From a phage: a stretch of DNA of 44,882 bases. Below the pieces are notes generated by a model that saw nothing but the letters and a program-made list of their open reading frames with translations, searched no databases and was not told the DNA's origin. The DNA is taken from sequence record PZ445419.1, one strand, 5' to 3'. The position numbers were made by a program, and so were the translations under genes. Positions 10,840 to 41,741 of this stretch are shown in pieces; position 1 is the first letter of the stretch, and every line of letters starts with the position of its first letter.

Positions 10840-11156
10840 GCGGGACAGGCGGGACGTCCCGTTTTGTCCCACCCCTGTGAAACTGCATACCTACTCACTT
10901 CCATTGCATAATATAAAAGCGGGACAAGCGGGACGTCCCGTTTTGTCCCACCCCACAAAAGTGCATACGTATTCGGTTTTCGTGCATAAAACAAACGGGA
11001 CAAAAAGCGGGACAAACACTAGGCGGGACAAAGCGGGACAGCACCCCGTCCCAGCCAGTGCTGCCGCGGTTTTCAGCCGATCGGGACAGCGGGACAGCAC
11101 CCCAGTCTTTCAGACTAGACGGGGGTCAATGGCCCCCCTCGTCTGAGACTGAATAA
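10840..11156. repeat. iteron-like array of GCGGGACA repeats with GGGACGTCCC dyads, ending in a conserved 57-bp palindrome (module copy 1)
   Basis: About 13 GCGGGACA/GGGACG/TGTCCC copies at 9-12 bp spacing; an imperfect 80-bp tandem duplication (10846-10995); the last ~140 bp is homologous to 38930-39069. Confidence 0.8.
11100..11156. repeat. 57-bp palindromic element, copy 1 (identical to 39013-39069)
   Basis: CCCCAGTCTTTCAGACTAGACGGGGGTCAATGGCCCCCCTCGTCTGAGACTGAATAA; nested dyads CAGTCT/AGACTG, AGACG/CGTCT, GGGGG/CCCCC around a TCAATGG loop. Confidence 0.8.
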
Positions 11157-32179: not shown

Positions 32180-32962
32180 TTAACGGCGGCGACGTTTACG
32201 TGGCGCTTCGTCTTCGTCGTCGTCCTCATCTTCGTCATCGCGTGGCTTACGACGCTTGCGAGGTTTTTCATCTTCCTCATCGTCGTCGTCATCGCGGCGC
32301 TTGGATTTCTTGGACTTGCGCGGCTTGTCATCTTCATCATCGTCATCACGACGTTTTGACTTTTTGGACTTGCGCGGTGCTTCGTCTTCGTCGTCGTTGT
32401 CCAGGTCTTCATCGGAGCAAGAAGACCCGCCACCTCCGAAGGCTTCGCCGTCTTCACGGAATCGCAGACCCAGCAAGCCAGCCCCGAGACCCTTGCCGTT
32501 GGTATTGTTCCATGCCCAAATATCAAGGGACACGTTGCAATAACAACCGGAGTAGATCTCCTGGCCTTCAATCTCGTCGCCGTCGATGGTCAGACCTTGT
32601 TCAGTCTGCTTCTCGCCGAGTGACGTTTGAATGATTGGTTGTTTGAACGATTTGGCGTTGATATACAACATGCCTTCGAATTCTTCGGTTACTTCATCGC
32701 GCTCGTCACCGTCGCGAACTGCACATTCCTTAGAATCCTGGGCGTAGTGGCGGTCCATCCACTTATCGGCATTCTTCTCGGATTTCAGCTTGTCGGTGAG
32801 CACTGCGCGTGCTGCCGCTTCCACTTTGTCCACCTGCGGATCTTCTTTATCCAGAAGAATCACGGCACGGTATGCCGGTTTTTGTCCATCCTGTTTAGGG
32901 GTATCACGTTCCCAAATTTTCAGGAAACATACGCGCACATTTTTCAGGTTGACTTTAGCCAT
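32180..32962 (-). CDS. phage ssDNA-binding protein-like (DUF2815-like) with repetitive charged C-terminal tail
   Basis: 260-aa ORF from MAKVNLKNVRVCF (GAGGA RBS); N-terminal globular region resembles DUF2815 proteins; C-terminal ~70 aa alternate basic (RKSKKSKRR) and acidic (DDDDEDD) blocks. Confidence 0.55.
   Translation of the reverse strand: MAKVNLKNVRVCFLKIWERDTPKQDGQKPAYRAVILLDKEDPQVDKVEAAARAVLTDKLKSEKNADKWMDRHYAQDSKECAVRDGDERDEVTEEFEGMLYINAKSFKQPIIQTSLGEKQTEQGLTIDGDEIEGQEIYSGCYCNVSLDIWAWNNTNGKGLGAGLLGLRFREDGEAFGGGGSSCSDEDLDNDDEDEAPRKSKKSKRRDDDDEDDKPRKSKKSKRRDDDDDEEDEKPRKRRKPRDDEDEDDDEDEAPRKRRRR
32195..32400. repeat. imperfect ~57-60-bp tandem repeats encoding the charged C-terminal tail
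   Basis: Repeated GACTTGCGCGG...CTTCATCATCGTC units on the plus strand encode KPRKSKKSKRRDDDD(E)DD repeats on the minus strand. Confidence 0.6.
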
Positions 32963-33027
32963 TTTCCAATTCCTCATTTTCACATGCATCGGGGTTATTG
33001 GAAGCCACCCCGTTCGGCTTGGTTGCC

Positions 33028-33056: not shown

Positions 33057-33295
33057 GCATTTTCATTAAAAAGATTTCTGGTCACGTAGTTGGTAGCGTT
33101 CTCGATCCAGCTTAACGGCGGGCGGTTGATGTTCTTCTCCACCCAATCGACGGCAGCTTCGCTATAGCCGTCATCCAACCAGCGGGTCGGATGTCGAATC
33201 ATCCACGCCACCATTAATACGCCTTGTACGCAATGCAGGATAAAGCCCAGCGCGCCGATAACAAACATCAATAAGATTGCGAATACTTTATTCAT
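33053..33295 (-). CDS. small membrane protein (hypothetical)
   Basis: 80-aa ORF with N-terminal TM segment FAILLMFVIGALGFILHCV. Confidence 0.5.
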   Translation of the reverse strand: MNKVFAILLMFVIGALGFILHCVQGVLMVAWMIRHPTRWLDDGYSEAAVDWVEKNINRPPLSWIENATNYVTRNLFNENA

Positions 33296-34718
33296 TGCTT
33301 AAGTCCTCGTCAGTAGCTTCAGACCACGCAGGGCGCGGGTCGTCGATTGGTGCTAATACCGGTTTTGCCGGTGCGCGCGTGATTTTATCACACAGCTTCG
33401 CCCACACTTTCGGTTTTTCGTCCTTCAGTACCGTCTCGGCATCCGTAGGGCTGAGCAATGTTTCTTTGTACATCACATCGCGCTTGATCCGGGCCTTCGT
33501 GAAGATTTCAATCACTTCGCTTTCGTCTGCCCACTTGCGAATCCCTTCCTTACCGGCAACCATCTTGAGGCCCAGCGATTCGCCATCGCCCGCCATAACC
33601 GCTTTGAATACCGCTGACTCGATAGCCTTGATGTGCTGGCGCATTGCGTCAAGACCTTCATAAGCCTTGCGCAGTTCCGCGGCGGTCATAGCGCCGTGGG
33701 CCGCTTCTTTCTTGCCACGCTTCGCACGTCGTGCCGCTTTGCGAGCTTCGCGGGCCATATTGCGGTCGTGATTGGCGCATTCTTCCTCTGTCGCAATACT
33801 CACGTCGTCGCCCAGGTCTTCGTCTGTTGCCGTTGGTGGGGTCATCGTGTCGATTGCAGCCTTAGCGCGGGCGCTACACTGATCCGCAAATCTGCACCAC
33901 TGACACGCATCAACGCTCGGTCGGAAGTCGGCGCGGGTGAGTCCCTTTTTGCCTCGGGCGTACGCTTCCAGCGCGGCGATAGCGCGCTTGGATGCAAACT
34001 TCGCGAATATCTCCAGGGCTTCTACCGAAATATCCCACTCCGACGCCCCGCCGCAATACGGCTGGAAGATAACCAGGCGCACGGTCGTGATGTCGTACAT
34101 GGATTGCAGCTTGCGCAGCAGGCCGAGCGCGTACAACATAAGCTGTTTGTTTTCTTTCGCCTCGACCTTATGCCGCCCAGTCTTAAGGTCGCCAACAATC
34201 AGCATGTACGTGCCGTCGGTCTTCTTCATGACCATGACCATATCGGCAGTACCGAACGTTTTAATCCTGTTGCCGTCGATCTCGAAGCCAGAGTGAAGGA
34301 CGCGGGTCAGGTCGGCGCGCATCTCAAGCTGAACAAACTCCGCCACTTCGAGGAGCGGTCGCCAGTGGTCGATGTATGCATCGCACTGTTTCACCATATC
34401 GTCGTTGACCAGTACGCCGCCTTTCGGTGCTTTCGGGTGTGCCTTTACTGGCCCCTTTCCTTCGTTCTCGACGTAACACCCTTTATACGTCTTTGCGGTT
34501 ATCAGCTTTTCACCGGCGATAATGCGGTTTAGCACGACTTCAGATACGGTGTGCATACTCGTACCGTTAATCGCGGCTTGCCCGGATTCGTTTGGGATAT
34601 CTTTTTCTACCACCAGAGCGGCAGGGCAACCCATCCATTTTTTAGCACCGGACGGCCCGAGTAATGAGTGTTCGGTATTGCTACCGGATTGCGTCTTACG
34701 TTTTGGTTTAATCGCCAT
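33288..34718 (-). CDS. PD-(D/E)XK nuclease (DUF2800 / Cas4-RecB-like) with Cys cluster
   Basis: 476-aa ORF with D...D-L-K/E-x-K-type core (GTADMVMV, GDLKTG, ENKQLMLYALG) and C-terminal CQWCRFADQC typical of Fe-S Cas4-like nucleases. Confidence 0.6.
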   Translation of the reverse strand: MAIKPKRKTQSGSNTEHSLLGPSGAKKWMGCPAALVVEKDIPNESGQAAINGTSMHTVSEVVLNRIIAGEKLITAKTYKGCYVENEGKGPVKAHPKAPKGGVLVNDDMVKQCDAYIDHWRPLLEVAEFVQLEMRADLTRVLHSGFEIDGNRIKTFGTADMVMVMKKTDGTYMLIVGDLKTGRHKVEAKENKQLMLYALGLLRKLQSMYDITTVRLVIFQPYCGGASEWDISVEALEIFAKFASKRAIAALEAYARGKKGLTRADFRPSVDACQWCRFADQCSARAKAAIDTMTPPTATDEDLGDDVSIATEEECANHDRNMAREARKAARRAKRGKKEAAHGAMTAAELRKAYEGLDAMRQHIKAIESAVFKAVMAGDGESLGLKMVAGKEGIRKWADESEVIEIFTKARIKRDVMYKETLLSPTDAETVLKDEKPKVWAKLCDKITRAPAKPVLAPIDDPRPAWSEATDEDLSNE

Positions 34719-36142: not shown

Positions 36143-36472
36143 ATGAATATCAAAGAAGCAATTGAAGTGTTATCTAATGCAATCCGCGGCGAAGCGGGTA
36201 AATCCTGGTATTACACAAATGCGGTGGATACTCTGTTATTTGAAGTGTCCAGATTATCGCGTGCTGAGAAGGAGCTTACCGCGAAGCTGGAATTGCTCAA
36301 CGGCACGGCAGCAAGCAAGCTGCAAAAACACAATGAAGAAATGGAAGAATACAAAAAGCAGGTTATCCGTTTGCGCAATGAGGGAAAGTCATGGGCAATG
36401 ATCGCCGAGTTGACCGGAATTAATCAGAGCACAGTGCGCTCCTGGGTACGCAATAATAAAACTTCAAAGTAA
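36143..36472 (+). CDS. helix-turn-helix DNA-binding protein (putative transcriptional regulator)
   Basis: 109-aa ORF; C-terminal SWAMIAELTGINQSTVRSWVRNN resembles a sigma-70 region 4/LuxR-type HTH; RBS context GGAGACTGAATT. Confidence 0.55.
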   Translation: MNIKEAIEVLSNAIRGEAGKSWYYTNAVDTLLFEVSRLSRAEKELTAKLELLNGTAASKLQKHNEEMEEYKKQVIRLRNEGKSWAMIAELTGINQSTVRSWVRNNKTSK

Positions 36473-36482
36473 GGCCACGGCA

Positions 36483-38747
36483 ATGAGCTTAATTAAATTC
36501 GCTGTAACACGACCCGCTAAAAAAGGCGAAAAAGCCAGGGCGGAAAACTTCCAGATGACTACCGAAGAGTTTTTCGAATTTATCAATGATGCGAAAGAAA
36601 TCTCCTCGGTGCATATCAACAAGACGGAAGATAAAGCGGAGTATGCGCGCCGCAAGCGTAAGGCCGATGGCATCGTGGCATATACCAGTGACGGCTTACG
36701 CCGTAAGACCAGCGCGGTGGACCGCTCGATCCTGTTCTTTGATATTGACCGCACCGACACTCGCACCCTGCGCCGCTGCCGTAAGGCGTTCATCGACGCG
36801 GGTCTGGAACACGTATTTCACACCACAACCGGCGACCGCCACCCGCTGAAAGGGGGCACGCGTTGCGCCCGTTTCCTGGTGCTCACGGACAAGCCGGTAC
36901 CGGCTGAAGACCTGGGCCGCGTCCAGTATGCACTATTACACCAACTGGGTCTGTCAGATGTGGACTTCGACGACTGTACAAAAGACACTAACCGCCTTAT
37001 GTACCTGCCACATCAGCAGTCTGTCGTTAAGTGCCACTACGGCAAGCGCGCCCGCGTCCGTCGTCTGCTCCGCCTGGCTGATAAGCTGGGAGTGGAAAAA
37101 GAGGAAGTACGACGCGAACTGACCCAGGGCGATGACGGCGTGGCTGACGGTATTCTGGATTGGTGCTTCCAGGCGGGATTCGAACCGCTGTCGTCTGGTC
37201 GTGGTTATGAAGTACCGTGTCCGAACGAACATCTGCACTCTGGTGAAGGGTCCACCGCTATCATGGTTAAGGATGGCGAGATCCGTTTCAAGTGTATGCA
37301 CACCGGCAACGAGTGCTGTTCCGAACTGAACAGACACCAGCACCTGGCGCTACGTCTTATCGGGATCCCGGACCACCTTAACGTCGAACCGCACAACATG
37401 TCACGTAAGCAAATCGCCGCCATCCTTCCGGGACTGGACGATGAGGAAGTGGAATCGTGCTATGAACATATCGTTGATGCGGTCGGTGACGGCGACGAGT
37501 ACGGCGGATGTACGGACGCAGACCTGGACAACGAGCCGGTTGCGCTGTTCAGTAAGCACGACCCGATCATCGAGGGGCTGATTAACTTCAAATCGACCTG
37601 GTATCTCGCCGGTGAGTCGAACATTGGCAAGTCGTTCTACGTGCTGGGCCAGATGGCGTCAGTATCTGCCGGTATTCCGTTCGGCGGCGCGAAGGTCGTC
37701 CAGTGCCACAACTTCTATTTCGACGCGGAAGGTGGTGAAGCCTCCAACCAGCGTAAAGAAGCATTGCAGATCAAATATGAGCACGACCTGGACAAGCTGC
37801 ACATTATCGATCTGCAGTCACGCGGCTGGGATATCACCAGCAAGTCAGGATTGCGTGAAGTTATCAGCTTCATCAACCGCACCGCTAACGGCGAACCGGT
37901 TGGCCTGGTGGCGTTCGACTCTCTCAACCAGACTGTTGCGCTGCGGTCCGCCGATGCTAAACCGTTCGACGAGAACAACGCCAGCGATATGGGCGAAGTG
38001 GTAAAAGCGCTGAAAGCCATCGCGGAAAATACCGGCGGCAGTGCTGGCGTCATCCACCACCCGGCGAAGGGTGCAAACGGCAGCAGATCCCCCCGCGGGT
38101 CCGGCGCGCTGCATGGTGCTGTTGATTCTGCGTTCTTCCTGGAGCAACCGGACGACAACCAGCCAGGCCAATTGAACCTGTATCACGAAAAGGCACGTAA
38201 CGGCATCAAGCAAGCGCCGCGTGGCTTCGTCCTGCTCAAGTGCAAGGTGAAGGTAGATCTCCGCAAGTCAGAAGCGTTCGCGTCGCACCAGTCCACCAGC
38301 ACCGGTCCGGACTTCGGAGACGTAGTTGCCGGTTGGGACGTCAAACCAATTGCGTCCACCCCGCGCGACGAGACTTTATACCTCGTACCGGTCGCCCTGG
38401 CACCGTTCGCTATAGAACAGGCGAAGGCCGCAGGAAAAGCCGCAGTTAAGGAAGAGAACACCGCCGGACCGCGCACCGAAAAAGAAAAGGTACTTTACGC
38501 GGCCCTGGAAAAACTGATGGAAGATAACCCGGACCATACCGGATTCAGTAAATCGGCAATTGTCCGCCAGGCTGGGCTTGCGAAAGGTGGAACATCGACG
38601 AAGGCAATCGACGATATGATCGAGCGCGGAGTGTTAGGTTTTTATACCGATCCGCACACTGGGGCCATCTATGGGTCGTCGAATATCGTCATCAAAACAA
38701 ATATACCCATCACGCTTTCGGCGACCGATGACGACCTGAAAGATTAA
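36483..38747 (+). CDS. primase/replicative helicase-like protein (AAA_25/RepA-like ATPase with N-terminal primase-like region)
   Basis: 754-aa ORF; Walker A-like AGESNIGKSF followed by a RecA-fold-like region; N-terminal half contains FFDIDRTD. Confidence 0.55.
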   Translation: MSLIKFAVTRPAKKGEKARAENFQMTTEEFFEFINDAKEISSVHINKTEDKAEYARRKRKADGIVAYTSDGLRRKTSAVDRSILFFDIDRTDTRTLRRCRKAFIDAGLEHVFHTTTGDRHPLKGGTRCARFLVLTDKPVPAEDLGRVQYALLHQLGLSDVDFDDCTKDTNRLMYLPHQQSVVKCHYGKRARVRRLLRLADKLGVEKEEVRRELTQGDDGVADGILDWCFQAGFEPLSSGRGYEVPCPNEHLHSGEGSTAIMVKDGEIRFKCMHTGNECCSELNRHQHLALRLIGIPDHLNVEPHNMSRKQIAAILPGLDDEEVESCYEHIVDAVGDGDEYGGCTDADLDNEPVALFSKHDPIIEGLINFKSTWYLAGESNIGKSFYVLGQMASVSAGIPFGGAKVVQCHNFYFDAEGGEASNQRKEALQIKYEHDLDKLHIIDLQSRGWDITSKSGLREVISFINRTANGEPVGLVAFDSLNQTVALRSADAKPFDENNASDMGEVVKALKAIAENTGGSAGVIHHPAKGANGSRSPRGSGALHGAVDSAFFLEQPDDNQPGQLNLYHEKARNGIKQAPRGFVLLKCKVKVDLRKSEAFASHQSTSTGPDFGDVVAGWDVKPIASTPRDETLYLVPVALAPFAIEQAKAAGKAAVKEENTAGPRTEKEKVLYAALEKLMEDNPDHTGFSKSAIVRQAGLAKGGTSTKAIDDMIERGVLGFYTDPHTGAIYGSSNIVIKTNIPITLSATDDDLKD

Positions 38748-38758
38748 ATTTTGCGTGT

Positions 38759-38867
38759 ATTGGTTGCCTATATGGGAATCCCCATATCGCTAAACGATTA
38801 ATTTGTGCGCGAATTGGTTGCCATTTTGAGTGTTTTTATCTGGTCGCATTGGTTGCCGTGTAGCGTG
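38759..38867 (+). repeat. three direct ATTGGTTGCC motif copies in an AT-rich spacer
   Basis: Exact copies at 38759-38768, 38813-38822 and 38858-38867; the first is followed by the palindrome TATATGGG-aat-CCCCATAT. Confidence 0.7.
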
Positions 38868-38907
38868 ATTATTATGAATAGTTATGCAATAAAACTGCAT
38901 AAAGTAA

Positions 38908-39069
38908 GCGGGACAGAAAGCGGGACAGACATGGGGCGGGACAAAGCGGGACAGCACCCCCGTCCCGCCCCGGATGGCGCGGCCTGGCGTGGGGCGGGAC
39001 AAGCGGGACAAACCCCAGTCTTTCAGACTAGACGGGGGTCAATGGCCCCCCTCGTCTGAGACTGAATAA
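38908..39069. repeat. iteron-like GCGGGACA array ending in the conserved 57-bp palindrome (module copy 2)
   Basis: Six direct GCGGGACA/CGGGACA copies plus an inverted GTCCCG copy; 38930-39069 is homologous to the 3' part of 10840-11156. Confidence 0.8.
39013..39069. repeat. 57-bp palindromic element, copy 2 (identical to 11100-11156)
   Basis: Same 57-nt sequence as copy 1, base for base. Confidence 0.8.
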
Positions 39070-39224
39070 AATCCGGGGATTGCAAAATACACGGCAGCAT
39101 GAGGCGAAGTGCGGTCGCGGATGAACTTGGCAACCAATGCGGGTTGTATTATGCTGAGTGAAAAATGCGGTTTGCAGTCACAGCAGATAGCGATCAACTT
39201 TTTCATGCGCATGATTAATATTGG

Positions 39225-39253
39225 TTGCATTCGTTCCAGCACCCTGCTAGATT
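39225..39253 (+). promoter_or_regulatory. candidate promoter for the rightward small-gene operon with ATTGGTTGCA motifs
   Basis: TTGCAT-17 nt-TAGATT; motif copies at 39220-39229 and 39251-39260; leader ATTGGTTGCACACCAACAAGAGGAC closely matches the moron leader at 5217-5250. Confidence 0.45.
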
Positions 39254-39283
39254 GGTTGCACACCAACAAGAGGACTGCACAAA

Positions 39284-39763
39284 ATGAAATTTCCAGTAAT
39301 CATCAAAGACGGTAAATCAACTATCACCTTCACCGGCAACGACCACGGCACTTACGAGAGCGGCGCGGCTTGCATGTCCACCCTGGAAGATATGATGATT
39401 CGTGTTAATTCCGGTAAAGCCTCGATTGTTGACGACAACACTAAGAAGGACCGAACAATGAGAGCACTAATCTGGAATTACTCACTGGCCCTGGCAAAGC
39501 TGAACGAAGCGAAGGCGCTGAACGGCAACGTAGACCGTGCGCGCCAGTTTGCGACACTGGCACACCAGTCAATCATGTGTGCGCTAGACGATATGGACGC
39601 CAGCATGGATGGCCTGGGTCCGCTGCGTAAGGCAATCCATGAATACGCGCTGGCATTCTCCCGTGAGCGCCTGGCTTATCGCTTCGGTATTGGCGAGAAG
39701 GCAGTGACAAACGTCGCCAGGATTAAAGCCCAGCGTGAGCTATTCGCCCAGCTTGCGAAATAA
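39284..39763 (+). CDS. hypothetical protein
   Basis: 159-aa ORF, first gene after the long regulatory region. Confidence 0.55.
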   Translation: MKFPVIIKDGKSTITFTGNDHGTYESGAACMSTLEDMMIRVNSGKASIVDDNTKKDRTMRALIWNYSLALAKLNEAKALNGNVDRARQFATLAHQSIMCALDDMDASMDGLGPLRKAIHEYALAFSRERLAYRFGIGEKAVTNVARIKAQRELFAQLAK

Positions 39764-39772
39764 GGGGCCAAA

Positions 39773-40042
39773 ATGCGCCGGAGACGAGCAAAACAGCTTT
39801 CGTGGCATATTCCCCTGCATTGCATACGAATATGGGCTAAGAATGCGAATGCGGGGGATTCTGTGTACTGGTGCTATCGCGACGACGTAAAGCCACTGAC
39901 GCAGACTCGCTACTTACACCAGTTCGCAGCACAACACGATTTCAGGGTGCGGACTTCCTTGCAACCAATGGGAATACGTATTACATTACGCCAGAAGCCC
40001 GCCATTGAGCGGGTGGGCAAACACTGGAGACTGAGCAAATGA
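39773..40042 (+). CDS. hypothetical protein
   Basis: 89-aa ORF with AAGGGG RBS, ending in the conserved junction GGAGACTGAGCAAATGA. Confidence 0.45.
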   Translation: MRRRRAKQLSWHIPLHCIRIWAKNANAGDSVYWCYRDDVKPLTQTRYLHQFAAQHDFRVRTSLQPMGIRITLRQKPAIERVGKHWRLSK

Positions 40043-40191
40043 TCAAAGTTCAGAGCAAGGCAACCGGTCTGATTTATCTTGTGGTGTGGGAGGGGAACGG
40101 AAGCGTAACGCTCATGCACCCAAAAACCAAATCACGCCACACTATCAGCCAATTTACCCTGAACCAGAACTATCGGAGACTGAGCAAATGA
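40039..40191 (+). CDS. small hypothetical protein
   Basis: 50-aa ORF absent from the ORF track; start and stop both lie in copies of the conserved junction cassette. Confidence 0.45.
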   Translation: MIKVQSKATGLIYLVVWEGNGSVTLMHPKTKSRHTISQFTLNQNYRRLSK

Positions 40192-40340
40192 CACCAATGC
40201 AAAGAGCACTAATGGCGGGATTCTCGCAGAAGTTTATTTCGGTAGACGCCTGCATAGCTGATTATGAGATGGACGGCATCGCTACGGTATGCGATGGCGA
40301 CTATAAGACTGTTGACGAGATTGAGGAGACTGAGCAATGA
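40188..40340 (+). CDS. small acidic hypothetical protein
   Basis: 50-aa ORF, same length as the preceding gene, bounded by junction cassette copies. Confidence 0.45.
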   Translation: MTPMQRALMAGFSQKFISVDACIADYEMDGIATVCDGDYKTVDEIEETEQ

Positions 40341-40891
40341 GATTACTATTCCGCCGCAAATCAGACGGGCGCATACTGAAGCCGATCCAGACCCTGGATT
40401 CCTACGTCCGCTTGCACCACGCGGCAAGCGATCGGGTATTCCGCGCATCGAAGGGCACATTGCCGCAGTTCTTCGAAGTCCTCACACACGATATTGAGCG
40501 CGGCGATGTGTTGCGTGATATTCGCGACGGGCAATTGTGGGTCGTGGAGCACACCTCCCAGCACGGCTTGCGGTTGAAGTCCGGTATCTTGTTGAAGGGG
40601 ATGACGTACTTCGGCCTCGTAAATTACGAGCGAGTGGGTCGCAAATACAGCCTTCGGGACCGCCAGCCTCATGAGCGCGTGGAGTTCCGCAAGTCGCAGC
40701 CCGCGTATGCCACTTACGACGCGAGCAAAGTGATGGAGCCGATCCGCCAGGCCACGCGTGAGATAGTCAATCGCTTTGATGCCGTGACGAATGCACAGCG
40801 CCAGGCGCGGGAATACGGTGTGGGATTTATCCGTGTCGAACCAGACGGCAGCATGAAGGCCATCGACCCGCGCTCGGTGATTCTGAAATGA
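40337..40891 (+). CDS. hypothetical protein
   Basis: 184-aa ORF, translationally coupled at both ends. Confidence 0.5.
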   Translation: MRLLFRRKSDGRILKPIQTLDSYVRLHHAASDRVFRASKGTLPQFFEVLTHDIERGDVLRDIRDGQLWVVEHTSQHGLRLKSGILLKGMTYFGLVNYERVGRKYSLRDRQPHERVEFRKSQPAYATYDASKVMEPIRQATREIVNRFDAVTNAQRQAREYGVGFIRVEPDGSMKAIDPRSVILK

Positions 40892-41034
40892 GTGCGTCTA
40901 TCCGTGATATGCTCATGCACAACCGCTTTGAGATAGGCGGTCGGGTGTTTCGCAATTACTTCGTGGCGCGAGCATGGGCGCGCCATATTGGCAAACCGGA
41001 AGGGGCAATTCGATGCTATACGTCTTCGCGGTAG
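40888..41034 (+). CDS. small hypothetical protein
   Basis: 48-aa ORF starting at an ATGA overlap. Confidence 0.3.
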   Translation: MSASIRDMLMHNRFEIGGRVFRNYFVARAWARHIGKPEGAIRCYTSSR

Positions 41035-41110
41035 TATGTGGCGGTAGTCTGGCGGCCCTGGTGCTGTTGGCGTCGGTTATTAGTCTGGTTAAATACCTAT
41101 GGGGCAGATT

Positions 41111-41398
41111 ATGATTCATGATGTGATTTATTGGTTTGGTATGGCCAGCATGTTATTCCTGCTTACCGCGGTGCTGTTGGGCATCCTGATGTTCGTCGTA
41201 TGGCCTGCAGTGGAAGCCGCCAGTATTACCCGCATGACGTTCGAGGTATACAAGCGCCGCGGGATCACGGAGCACCCGACCAGGTTGCGCATGTGGTGGC
41301 TGTGGTATCGGGATATGATAGGCGGGCGAACATTCGAGGCCGTCCGGTCGAGTGGATGGGAGTGGAAAGGCGTCGGCAAGTGGTCCATTTTCGATTAA
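41111..41398 (+). CDS. small membrane protein (hypothetical)
   Basis: 95-aa ORF with TM segment WFGMASMLFLLTAVLLGILMFVVW; alternative start at 41099. Confidence 0.45.
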   Translation: MIHDVIYWFGMASMLFLLTAVLLGILMFVVWPAVEAASITRMTFEVYKRRGITEHPTRLRMWWLWYRDMIGGRTFEAVRSSGWEWKGVGKWSIFD

Positions 41399-41415
41399 TT
41401 ATGCAAGCGTGATAT

Positions 41416-41450
41416 AGTCCCAGTGAGCTAAAACTTACTGGGACTTTTTT
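41416..41450 (+). terminator. intrinsic terminator immediately upstream of the lysis cassette
   Basis: 9-bp stem AGTCCCAGT/ACTGGGACT with a 12-nt loop, then TTTTT abutting the holin-like ATG. Confidence 0.6.
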
Positions 41451-41741
41451 ATGGATAAGCTAAACGAGTGGTTATTTGCCCTCGCATGTCTGGCTGGCGG
41501 CTTCGTAGGCGCACGCATTCATGGCGAGGCTACGAAAGGGCCGCTAAACTTCGTTTTATATATCGTGGTCGGCTTCCTGTGTGCCATATTTGGCGCACCG
41601 GCTATTGCCGAGTGGGCTGGTTTGTCGGGGGAGCGCACTGTTGCCGGGTTGGGCTTCGTAACCGCAATCTTCTGGATGCCAATCGCCGACCGGATCAGGG
41701 AGACTATTGCGTCGTTCCGACTTCCGGGGGGTGCAAAATGA
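41451..41741 (+). CDS. holin (putative)
   Basis: 96-aa ORF with three hydrophobic segments and a charged C-terminus, directly upstream of the endolysin. Confidence 0.5.
   Translation: MDKLNEWLFALACLAGGFVGARIHGEATKGPLNFVLYIVVGFLCAIFGAPAIAEWAGLSGERTVAGLGFVTAIFWMPIADRIRETIASFRLPGGAK

Follow-up and report, generated by a model that had tools for sequence, protein, structure and literature searches.

In T4-type phages, ORFans are flanked by PeSLs, intergenic repeats of about 100 bp that combine a sigma-70 promoter and a terminator stem-loop (Arbiol et al., 2010, PMC2839356; Comeau et al., 2014, PMC4122927). Close T4-type relatives differ by one cassette plus one repeat (PMC2839356), and recombination between flanking copies has been proposed to result in excision and re-insertion of cassettes, each of which keeps its expression signal (PMC2839356; PMC4122927). 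For lambdoid phages, the linker idea of Susskind and Botstein and the boundary sequences at the module joints of HK620 have been summarised, and the linker idea has been contrasted with illegitimate recombination followed by selection (PMC3029335). In mycobacteriophages, a precise indel distinguishing Brujita from Island3 has been attributed to general recombination at short repeats (PMC3029335).

The window analysed here, 44,882 bp in length, covers the entire genome of Escherichia phage Oekolampad (Bas18, MZ501095), a member of the genus Dhillonvirus; compared with the database entry, the sequence has a circular shift of 551 bp. A gene slot in this genome is best read as a small-scale counterpart, embedded in coding sequence, of the T4 PeSLs and of the boundary sequences of lambdoid phages; PeSL-mediated shuffling is the closest analogue and the lambdoid boundary sequences are the second. 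In the Dhillonvirus literature searched, no description of this A–D slot was found. In Oekolampad, the cassettes B and C lie between genes A and D (Table 1). These four ORFs are the deposited CDSs bas18_0054 to bas18_0057, and each neighbouring pair (A/B, B/C and C/D) shares an ATGA stop/start overlap. The 3' codons of gene A, TGG AGA CTG AGC AAA TGA (WRLSK and stop), are part of the repeated boundary.

Table 1. Features of the A–D slot, the second slot and their genomic context in the Oekolampad window
Feature	Coordinates	Strand	Description
J1, boundary copy 1	40026..40042	+	17-mer GGAGACTGAGCAAATGA; stop of A, start of B
J2, boundary copy 2	40175..40191	+	identical 17-mer GGAGACTGAGCAAATGA; stop of B, start of C
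J3, boundary copy 3	40325..40340	+	GGAGACTGAGCAATGA, one A shorter; stop of C, start of D
Gene A / bas18_0054	39773..40042	+	89 aa, phrog_12533; conserved left anchor of the slot
Cassette B / bas18_0055	40039..40191	+	153 nt, 50 aa, no family; accessory; ends ...RRLSK and stop
Cassette C / bas18_0056	40188..40340	+	153 nt, 50 aa, phrog_15977; accessory; ends ...EETEQ and stop
Gene D / bas18_0057	40337..40891	+	184 aa, phrog_10243; conserved right anchor of the slot
Second-slot boundary copy a	39268..39287	+	AAGAGGACTGCACAAAATGA; start of Y1/gp50 ORF (39284-39763)
Second-slot boundary copy b	39443..39461	+	AAGAAGGACCGAACAATGA; annotated start of bas18_0053 (39458)
Promoter-like site	39127..39155	+	upstream of accessory operon; consensus match only
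Terminator-like stem-loop and T run	41416..41445	+	closes accessory operon before holin gene
Gp2.5-like ssDNA-binding/annealing protein	32180..32989	-	phrog_112, 3e-57; candidate short-homology annealing enzyme
Exonuclease	33288..34718	-	phrog_69; candidate partner of annealing protein

Exact copies of the 13-mer GGAGACTGAGCAA are confined to three plus-strand positions in the whole genome, 40026, 40175 and 40325, in agreement with the original prediction that a repeat marks three consecutive gene boundaries. When up to two mismatches are allowed, six matches are found against 0.79 expected, and none of 100 shuffled sequences reaches six. The copies are spaced by 149 nt (J1 to J2) and 150 nt (J2 to J3). 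At J1, the SD sequence GGAG is followed by a 9-nt spacer and ATGA; at all three copies GGAG lies 8–9 nt upstream of ATG, so that each boundary has the RBS and ATGA overlap ascribed to it, and the SD plus ATGA layout of overlapping genes, from which translational coupling is predicted, is present at each. J1 and J2 share one reading frame, AGA CTG AGC AAA TGA ((W/R)RLSK and stop), whereas J3 is read in another, GAG ACT GAG CAA TGA (ETEQ and stop); therefore the identity is at the nucleotide level, not at the protein level. A general RBS consensus is ruled out by the remaining ATGA junctions of the Oekolampad genome, where the upstream sequence is unrelated to the motif. The boundary feature is real, statistically secure and explained in outline.

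About 158 Dhillonvirus records match this region, and the slot was read directly in about 70 loci from GenBank phages, IMG/VR, ENA, Logan and metagenome contigs. Each relative examined among these loci has both A and D. In EP23, IMG 645948515, rolling and SM_W22, the slot is empty and A is joined to D by the exact GGAGACTGAGCAAATGA; therefore, the repeat is the native A–D boundary. The slot is also empty in mckay and LM40P1, where close variants, GGAGACTGGCGAAATGA and GGAGACTGACAAAATGA, form the A–D joint. The boundary thus reads as the last codons of A plus the predicted translation-initiation region of D.

The slot states read directly are A–D, A–C–D, A–B–D, A–B–C–D, A–F–C–D, A–B–F–C–D, A–E–D and A–B'–D'. 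C alone is the majority state. B alone is found in YD-2008.s, 011D5, Kenya-K19, L-h 1M and HK1, and B with C in Oekolampad, LF50P3, SM_A2 and BF9 as well as in ten metagenomic contexts. F with C occurs in EK99P-1, and B, F and C together in two metagenomic genomes. E is carried by WFI, 101114B2, WF5505 and two contigs, and a divergent B' accompanies a divergent D' in Opt212, McMelon, the ZCEC phages and phiEco273. Among 60 records sampled at even spacing, 36 slots held C, 3 held B, 3 held B and C, and 7 were empty; the rest comprised 3 with E, 1 with F and C, 4 with B' and 3 others. The comparison of relatives thus revealed at least eight slot states, with indels that are nucleotide-exact at the repeat, and no relatives were found to carry the same genes without conserved junction sequence.

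Every cassette carries its own boundary copy at its 3' end. The end of B (...RRLSK) has the 17-nt form and that of C (...EETEQ) the 16-nt form; E, ending in ...TWRLRK, has at least 19 nt of boundary identity, and F ends in a more diverged boundary, CTGGAGGCCGAGAAATG. In the B' lineages, the two boundary copies match at only 13 of 17 positions and the cassette is still present. The cassettes of this slot and of a second one nearby (see below) are ORFans of 135–345 bp. B is present in 25 and C in 107 of the ~158 Dhillonvirus records. Both are under purifying selection (dN/dS about 0.1–0.3, with about 0.13 for B) and therefore are real genes. No match indicating a function was obtained in Pfam or PHROGs for any of the genes A to F, nor in NCBIfam for A to D; slot proteins are absent among those detected by proteomics of phage EE09.

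As originally described, B and C are both 153 nt long and have only the boundary in common. The regular 149/150-nt period and the equal gene lengths would be expected of an array of tandem duplications, in which B and C would have diverged from one ~150-bp unit whose conserved ends would be the repeats, and one cassette, E, is truly a partial duplicate of D (see below). Nevertheless, this explanation is very unlikely. B and C show no DNA or protein similarity beyond the boundary by blastp, hhalign or blastn, their boundary frames differ, each occurs alone, and allele lengths vary between 44 and 57 aa among relatives (50, 54 or 57 aa for B; 44, 47 or 50 aa for C). The equal length of 153 nt is a coincidence of the Oekolampad alleles. 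The present profile comparisons refute B and C as diverged duplicates and detect homology only for E versus D.

E is a paralog of D residues 46–110 (blastp, 3e-9; phrog_10243, 6e-11; hhalign probability, 97.7%), and tblastn of E against the Oekolampad window gives 7e-8. In E, the D-homologous part is followed by two codons and then by the tail of A with the boundary. At least one cassette, E, thus appears to be a partial copy of the 5' half of D joined to the boundary. This layout is as would be expected from partial tandem duplication of a segment consisting of the boundary and the 5' part of D; acquisition from a diverged D would give the same layout. B shows weak collinear similarity to D residues 2–46, with the ungapped profile best at offset +1 (p 0.004–0.01), and hhalign with a larger D alignment is not significant for B versus D, picking the C-terminus of D instead. 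An origin of B as a partial copy of the D N-terminus is only suggestive. For C and F, no relatives were detected outside the slot, and neither was found elsewhere in the genome or in other frames. A single paralog family comprising A, B and D, suggested by the shared ...RLSK tail, is unsupported: the A–B hit is due to the A–B' fusion of JLBYU60, and after removal of this fusion from the A set the E-values for A versus B are 0.05–0.3.

The cassettes follow a restricted order. In all loci, B precedes F and F precedes C, and the sole right-hand partner of C is D. The one-base difference between boundary forms would set the allowed neighbours: A, B and E are followed by the 17-nt form and C by the 16-nt form, and the copy that follows F is diverged. 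When a crossover in the 13-nt core is simulated between the 17-nt J2 and the 16-nt J3, B is extended by 52 residues, and a C–B order produced by the same core crossover fuses C in frame to B. In JLBYU60, a change in the length of the A run (GCAAAATGA) has fused A to B'. The restricted order and the confinement of C to the position before D would therefore be due to the frame difference between the 16-nt and 17-nt forms. The fixed B–F–C order also fits a loss-only history from one ancestral array.

Several comparisons of relatives differ by a single cassette, in backgrounds that are near-identical on at least one flank. Oekolampad and GeorgBuechner differ by B plus one boundary copy (149 bp; identity only 89.7% in gene A and about 98% in C and D), SM_A2 and YD-2008.s by C plus one copy (150 bp), and IMG_009799 and EK99P-1 by B plus one copy. 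A crossover simulated between J1 and J2 of Oekolampad reproduces the GeorgBuechner joint exactly. As with PeSLs, ORFan cassettes of a plastic region lie between copies of an expression signal, and these copies delimit the indels that distinguish close relatives. Unlike PeSLs, the Dhillonvirus boundary is not an intergenic element of ~100 bp; it comprises 13–19 nt inside overlapping coding sequence and is a translational signal (SD plus ATGA) that encodes the last 4–5 residues of each cassette in two frames. Furthermore, the junctions have no sigma-70-like promoter and no stable stem-loop or terminator: a promoter scan of positions 38700–41500 gave the single site at 39127–39155 and none at 40026, 40175 or 40325, and no terminator-like site was found at the junctions. 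Although it lacks these PeSL features (promoter, stem-loop and intergenic position), the slot boundary appears to work in the same manner.

Segments of the slot region have different degrees of identity in different relatives. Compared with Oekolampad, KarlBarth shows 97.7% identity in C and 79% in D; SM_A2 shows 81% in A, 90% in B, 97.7% in C and 82% in D; bob shows 95% in A, 70% in C and 94.5% in D; and BF9 shows 97.7% in B with a very different C. Alleles of the segments reassort among these relatives. In mismatch maps, near-identity changes to divergence at J2 or J3 within about 20 nt: the transition is at J2 for Oekolampad versus BF9 and for IMG_009799 versus 011D5, and at J3 for Oekolampad versus KarlBarth and SM_A2. 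Breakpoints are also found inside genes, namely in the C alleles of Haito and bob and as peaks within A. A histogram of breakpoints from a pairwise HMM, in which the pairs are non-independent, peaks immediately 3' of J1, less strongly behind J3, and also inside A, and would support joints at the repeat only weakly.

The strongest argument for joints at the repeat comes from the combinatorics of adjacent genes. Eleven adjacency types are found: A–B, A–C, A–D, A–E, A–F, B–C, B–D, B–F, F–C, C–D and E–D. The right-hand partners of A (B, C, D, E and F) have no homology beyond the boundary, those of B (C, D and F) have only the boundary sequence in common, and the same holds for the left-hand partners of D (A, B, C and E). 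A boundary of 13–17 nt is thus flanked by non-homologous sequences in different genomes, as expected of a linker. As the partners of B share only the boundary, at least two joints must, irrespective of the history, have formed at exactly these nucleotides without scars, and these joints would not be explicable by crossover in flanking homologous genes. We infer that crossover took place within the 13–17-nt repeat. In these respects the slot resembles lambdoid boundary sequences, which are likewise short, conserved, flanked by non-homologous DNA and proposed to be sites of homologous exchange creating mosaic joints. Lambdoid phages, however, are temperate, have Red/Erf-type recombinases and exchange larger functional modules, whereas Oekolampad is a virulent siphovirus and the Dhillonvirus repeat is duplicated in tandem within one genome around small ORFan cassettes.

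In the main alternative explanation, the repeat would be an ordinary RBS only, and its copies would not be recombination substrates: selection would have kept the initiation region of D after a few ancient illegitimate insertions, which would then have spread by homologous recombination in flanking genes. Consistent with this, the start of D is always preceded by a GGAGAC(T/A)GAnnA(A)ATGA region, irrespective of the upstream gene, and the GGAG SD of B and C marks the left edge of the repeat. J3 tolerates synonymous changes among relatives (ACT/ACA/ACC and GAG/GAA), and variants of J1 are found in KarlBarth, B2, 011D5 and Opt212; conservation of the boundary does not exceed what coding and RBS/SD constraints explain. 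The breakpoints within genes and the fixed cassette order are likewise consistent with an ordinary RBS. However, the three right-hand neighbours of B and the five of A, non-homologous beyond the boundary, argue that several joints formed without scars at the same nucleotides, the cassette differences are exact in near-identical backgrounds, and a second slot repeats the pattern. An ordinary RBS alone is thus considered an unlikely explanation.

The preferred explanation, to which a probability of about 65% is assigned, is that insertion of an ORF is accompanied each time by duplication of a translational-coupling signal, the copies of which then allow, as short direct repeats, precise loss and unequal exchange. 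Each accessory ORF between A and D would carry its own 3' copy of the boundary, so that the insert and D both keep SD and stop/start overlap; Oekolampad has three copies because it holds two inserts, B and C. The boundary would be retained because each downstream gene needs it for translation, and recombination would be a by-product. The direct repeats of 13–19 bp, about 150 bp apart, would be substrates for short-homology recombination. Against this explanation, a repeat of 13–17 bp is short for RecA-type recombination, and B' is retained between poorly matching boundary copies; the variants of the boundary, the breakpoints within genes and the fixed cassette order also count against it. Oekolampad has genes for a Gp2.5-like annealing protein and for exonucleases (Table 1), functions of a kind linked in T7 to recombination between short homologous stretches. 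The route might be annealing by the Gp2.5-like protein with an exonuclease, or replication slippage. Within one genome, this would result in the precise loss of one cassette and one copy; between co-infecting phages, unequal exchange of A–B–D with A–C–D, through the B–D boundary of one phage and the A–C boundary of the other, which are the same 17-mer, would yield A–B–C–D and A–D, both of which exist.

Pierce, Kong and Masker reportedly found in about 1991 that deletion frequency in phage T7 rises steeply with the length of direct repeats. As in that system, nearby repeats of 10–20 bp are associated with precise loss of the intervening DNA and one repeat, and Gp2.5/exonuclease functions are present. 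The T7 repeats, however, were engineered and only loss was measured, whereas the Dhillonvirus repeats are natural, functional and maintained, and their pattern also requires gains or stacking. The Brujita/Island3 case likewise is a precise indel between close relatives at short repeated sequences, but it is a single event with no reusable slot, and the repeat there is not a translational-coupling signal.

Mobility driven by an enzyme, in which a site-specific recombinase or homing endonuclease would recognise the 17-mer, is very improbable. Record PQ658967 labels a D homolog 'HNH endonuclease', and a 109-aa HTH protein whose RBS is GGAGACTGA belongs to a PHROG named 'transposase'. However, D has no match in Pfam, NCBIfam or PDB, the best 120 of 429 D homologs contain no Pfam domain and no named one is called an endonuclease; D as an HNH nuclease is thus without support from domains, structures or homolog names. 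No integrase is annotated in a well-annotated relative, no inverted repeat or attC-like structure was found at the junctions, and the match at the HTH gene spans only 9 nt. Searches for an adjacent homing endonuclease (HNH, GIY-YIG or LAGLIDADG) gave no Pfam/NCBIfam match for A, B, C or D. As for the 17-mer as a mobile element across phage groups, this candidate was rejected: unrelated IMG/VR contigs contain few exact matches, which could arise by chance among SD–ATGA junctions. Like integron cassettes, the slot cassettes are small promoterless ORFs stacked in one orientation at one site with a repeat at each 3' end. The slot, however, has no integrase, attI or attC hairpin, and its repeat is 17 nt of coding/RBS sequence, so that the resemblance is one of layout only; the slot is not integron-like or nuclease-driven.

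The original prediction had also linked the boundary to the RBS of the HTH gene and to palindromes elsewhere in the genome. GGAGACTGA is indeed the RBS of the 109-aa HTH gene at 36143, but the similarity stops after 9 nt (GGAGACTGAattATG) and is a coincidence. Similarly, GAGACTGAAT lies in the 3' arm of a hairpin within a 58-nt perfect repeat at 11099–11156 and 39012–39069, a coincidence of 8–10 nt. The core GAGACTGA occurs seven times against 0.64 expected, but three of these are contributed by the slot boundary and two by the duplicated 58-nt hairpin, by which a genome-wide motif is ruled out. It could be supposed that one regulator or sRNA binds the GGAGACUGA-containing initiation regions of the HTH gene, B, C and D as a shared translational operator, given this excess and the four copies in initiation regions. 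This is extremely improbable, as three of the four are slot copies and only two would remain in phages with an empty slot, the HTH-gene similarity is limited to the 9 nt mentioned above, and no other gene start has the motif. The further proposal that the junctions are linkers for shuffling of accessory genes is borne out in that the slot content varies, but the shuffling is restricted and the repeat is primarily the native A–D boundary, duplicated with each insert, rather than a free-standing linker.

A second slot with the same architecture, between X and gp50, is located two genes upstream and holds the unrelated cassettes Y1, Y2 and Y3. In most phages, X is joined to gp50 by GAGGACTGAAC(A/G)ATGA. 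In Oekolampad this slot holds Y1 (Table 1); in mckay the unrelated Y3 lies between two copies of GAGGAC(C/T)GAACAATG, and its end, ...TKRTEQ and stop, is a second copy of the X tail, ...NMRTEQ and stop, together with the boundary. Both slots belong to an accessory operon from about 39151 to 41412, in which small genes, predicted to be coupled, lie between the promoter-like site and the terminator-like stem-loop. In BF9, Opt212 and JLBYU60, a 56-aa ORF after D lacks a duplicated boundary, and thus not every insertion in the operon follows the rule.

A more far-reaching explanation is that the 17-nt boundary is an att-like docking site that works without a recombinase, with a built-in frame grammar, at least two plug-in slots and births of cassettes by partial duplication. 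This explanation is possible, at somewhat less than even odds. If it is true, any ORF ending in the 17-nt form would be stackable upstream of any other cassette when co-infecting phages exchange unequally, whereas the 16-nt form would lock C beside D. Partial duplications of the downstream gene would then give rise to new cassettes, as in the case of E, and a virulent siphovirus would possess a small plug-in cassette system in its accessory operon.

A long-running debate concerns whether the mosaic joints of phages arise at short linkers that are conserved or at random positions, with subsequent selection. The A–D slot combines five unrelated cassettes with eleven adjacency types, its 17-nt repeat is at the same time the ribosome-binding and stop/start signal, and it offers a compact natural case for testing this. 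Dhillonvirus is tractable: about 150 of its phages have been sequenced, they grow readily on E. coli, and the BASEL collection includes several. The slot could show how much a functional repeat of 13–17 bp raises precise gene gain and loss, and it bears on how expression signals may double as recombination sites for accessory, possibly anti-defence, genes.

In the JLBYU60 locus (L017, ~842-1041), the A-run of the cassette boundary carries one additional A (GCAAAATGA), by which the stop codon of anchor gene A is lost and A is fused with B', the divergent form of cassette B; the fusion is annotated in the record as one 432-nt gene. Gene structure in this locus is altered by A-run slippage in the boundary. 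In L070, a contig from a human gut metagenome (506-1314), one rare variant (GGAGACTGCGCAAATGA) is present at both the A-E and the E-D boundary; in WFI and IMG_011231, other loci with cassette E in the slot, the A-E copy and the E-D copy are unlike each other. The two copies in L070 may have undergone exchange or conversion with each other. The exact 17-mer is also found as an ATGA gene junction (...RLSK* then M...) in unrelated viral contigs of IMG/VR (L020, L022, L031, L035; L024, L037; L027). These few matches look compatible with chance, given the huge number of SD-ATGA junctions.

Another cassette slot, with the architecture of the A-D slot, lies between X and gp50, upstream of A, and is seen in Oekolampad, mckay (L051), SM_S22 (L010) and L044. 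Its cassettes Y1, Y2 and Y3 are unrelated, and each ends with a copy of the X-gp50 boundary, GAGGACTGAACAATGA. In Oekolampad, X is 10 codons longer by readthrough, and Y1 and gp50 form an in-frame fusion of 159 aa, of which just a 306-nt portion is annotated in the deposited record.

Coordinates of features in the window
Feature	Coordinates	Family
58-nt perfect direct repeat, first copy	11099-11156	
109-aa protein gene, HTH at C-terminus	36143-36472	phrog_9366
58-nt perfect direct repeat, second copy	39012-39069	
X-gp50 slot	39151-39763	
X-gp50 boundary copy	39268-39287	
Y1-gp50 fusion ORF	39284-39763	
X-gp50 boundary copy	39443-39461	

The HTH gene, whose family is labelled 'transposase', has GGAGACTGAATTATG as its RBS and is directly followed by the helicase-primase gene. 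One copy of the 58-nt repeat is located after this helicase-primase gene and the other after the major tail gene region, both preceded by GGGACA(G/A) repeats. Folding of the repeat gives a long hairpin (-32 kcal/mol, z = -3.4) that possibly serves as a terminator or as some other signal in regulation or replication.

In PQ658967 (L057, 832-1404), the homolog of anchor gene D is labelled 'HNH endonuclease' on the basis of similarity to a KarlBarth protein. Pfam, NCBIfam and PDB gave no support for this function, and none of the best 120 D homologs listed has a Pfam domain or is named HNH endonuclease; the label is probably a mis-annotation that has been passed on.

Some indels are not bounded by the repeat. 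In BF9 (L012), Opt212 (L016) and JLBYU60, a 56-aa ORF (MNKFDLVRDK...) has been inserted immediately behind the ATGA of D with no duplication of the boundary, and the downstream gene (46/48 aa), shortened by 7 codons at its 5' end, begins at an internal Met. In several genomes (BF9, 1050-1358; slur05, L049; L069; L075), deletions have left C and D truncated or have produced a fusion of C with the C-terminal portion of D, showing that the slot also undergoes non-repeat deletions.
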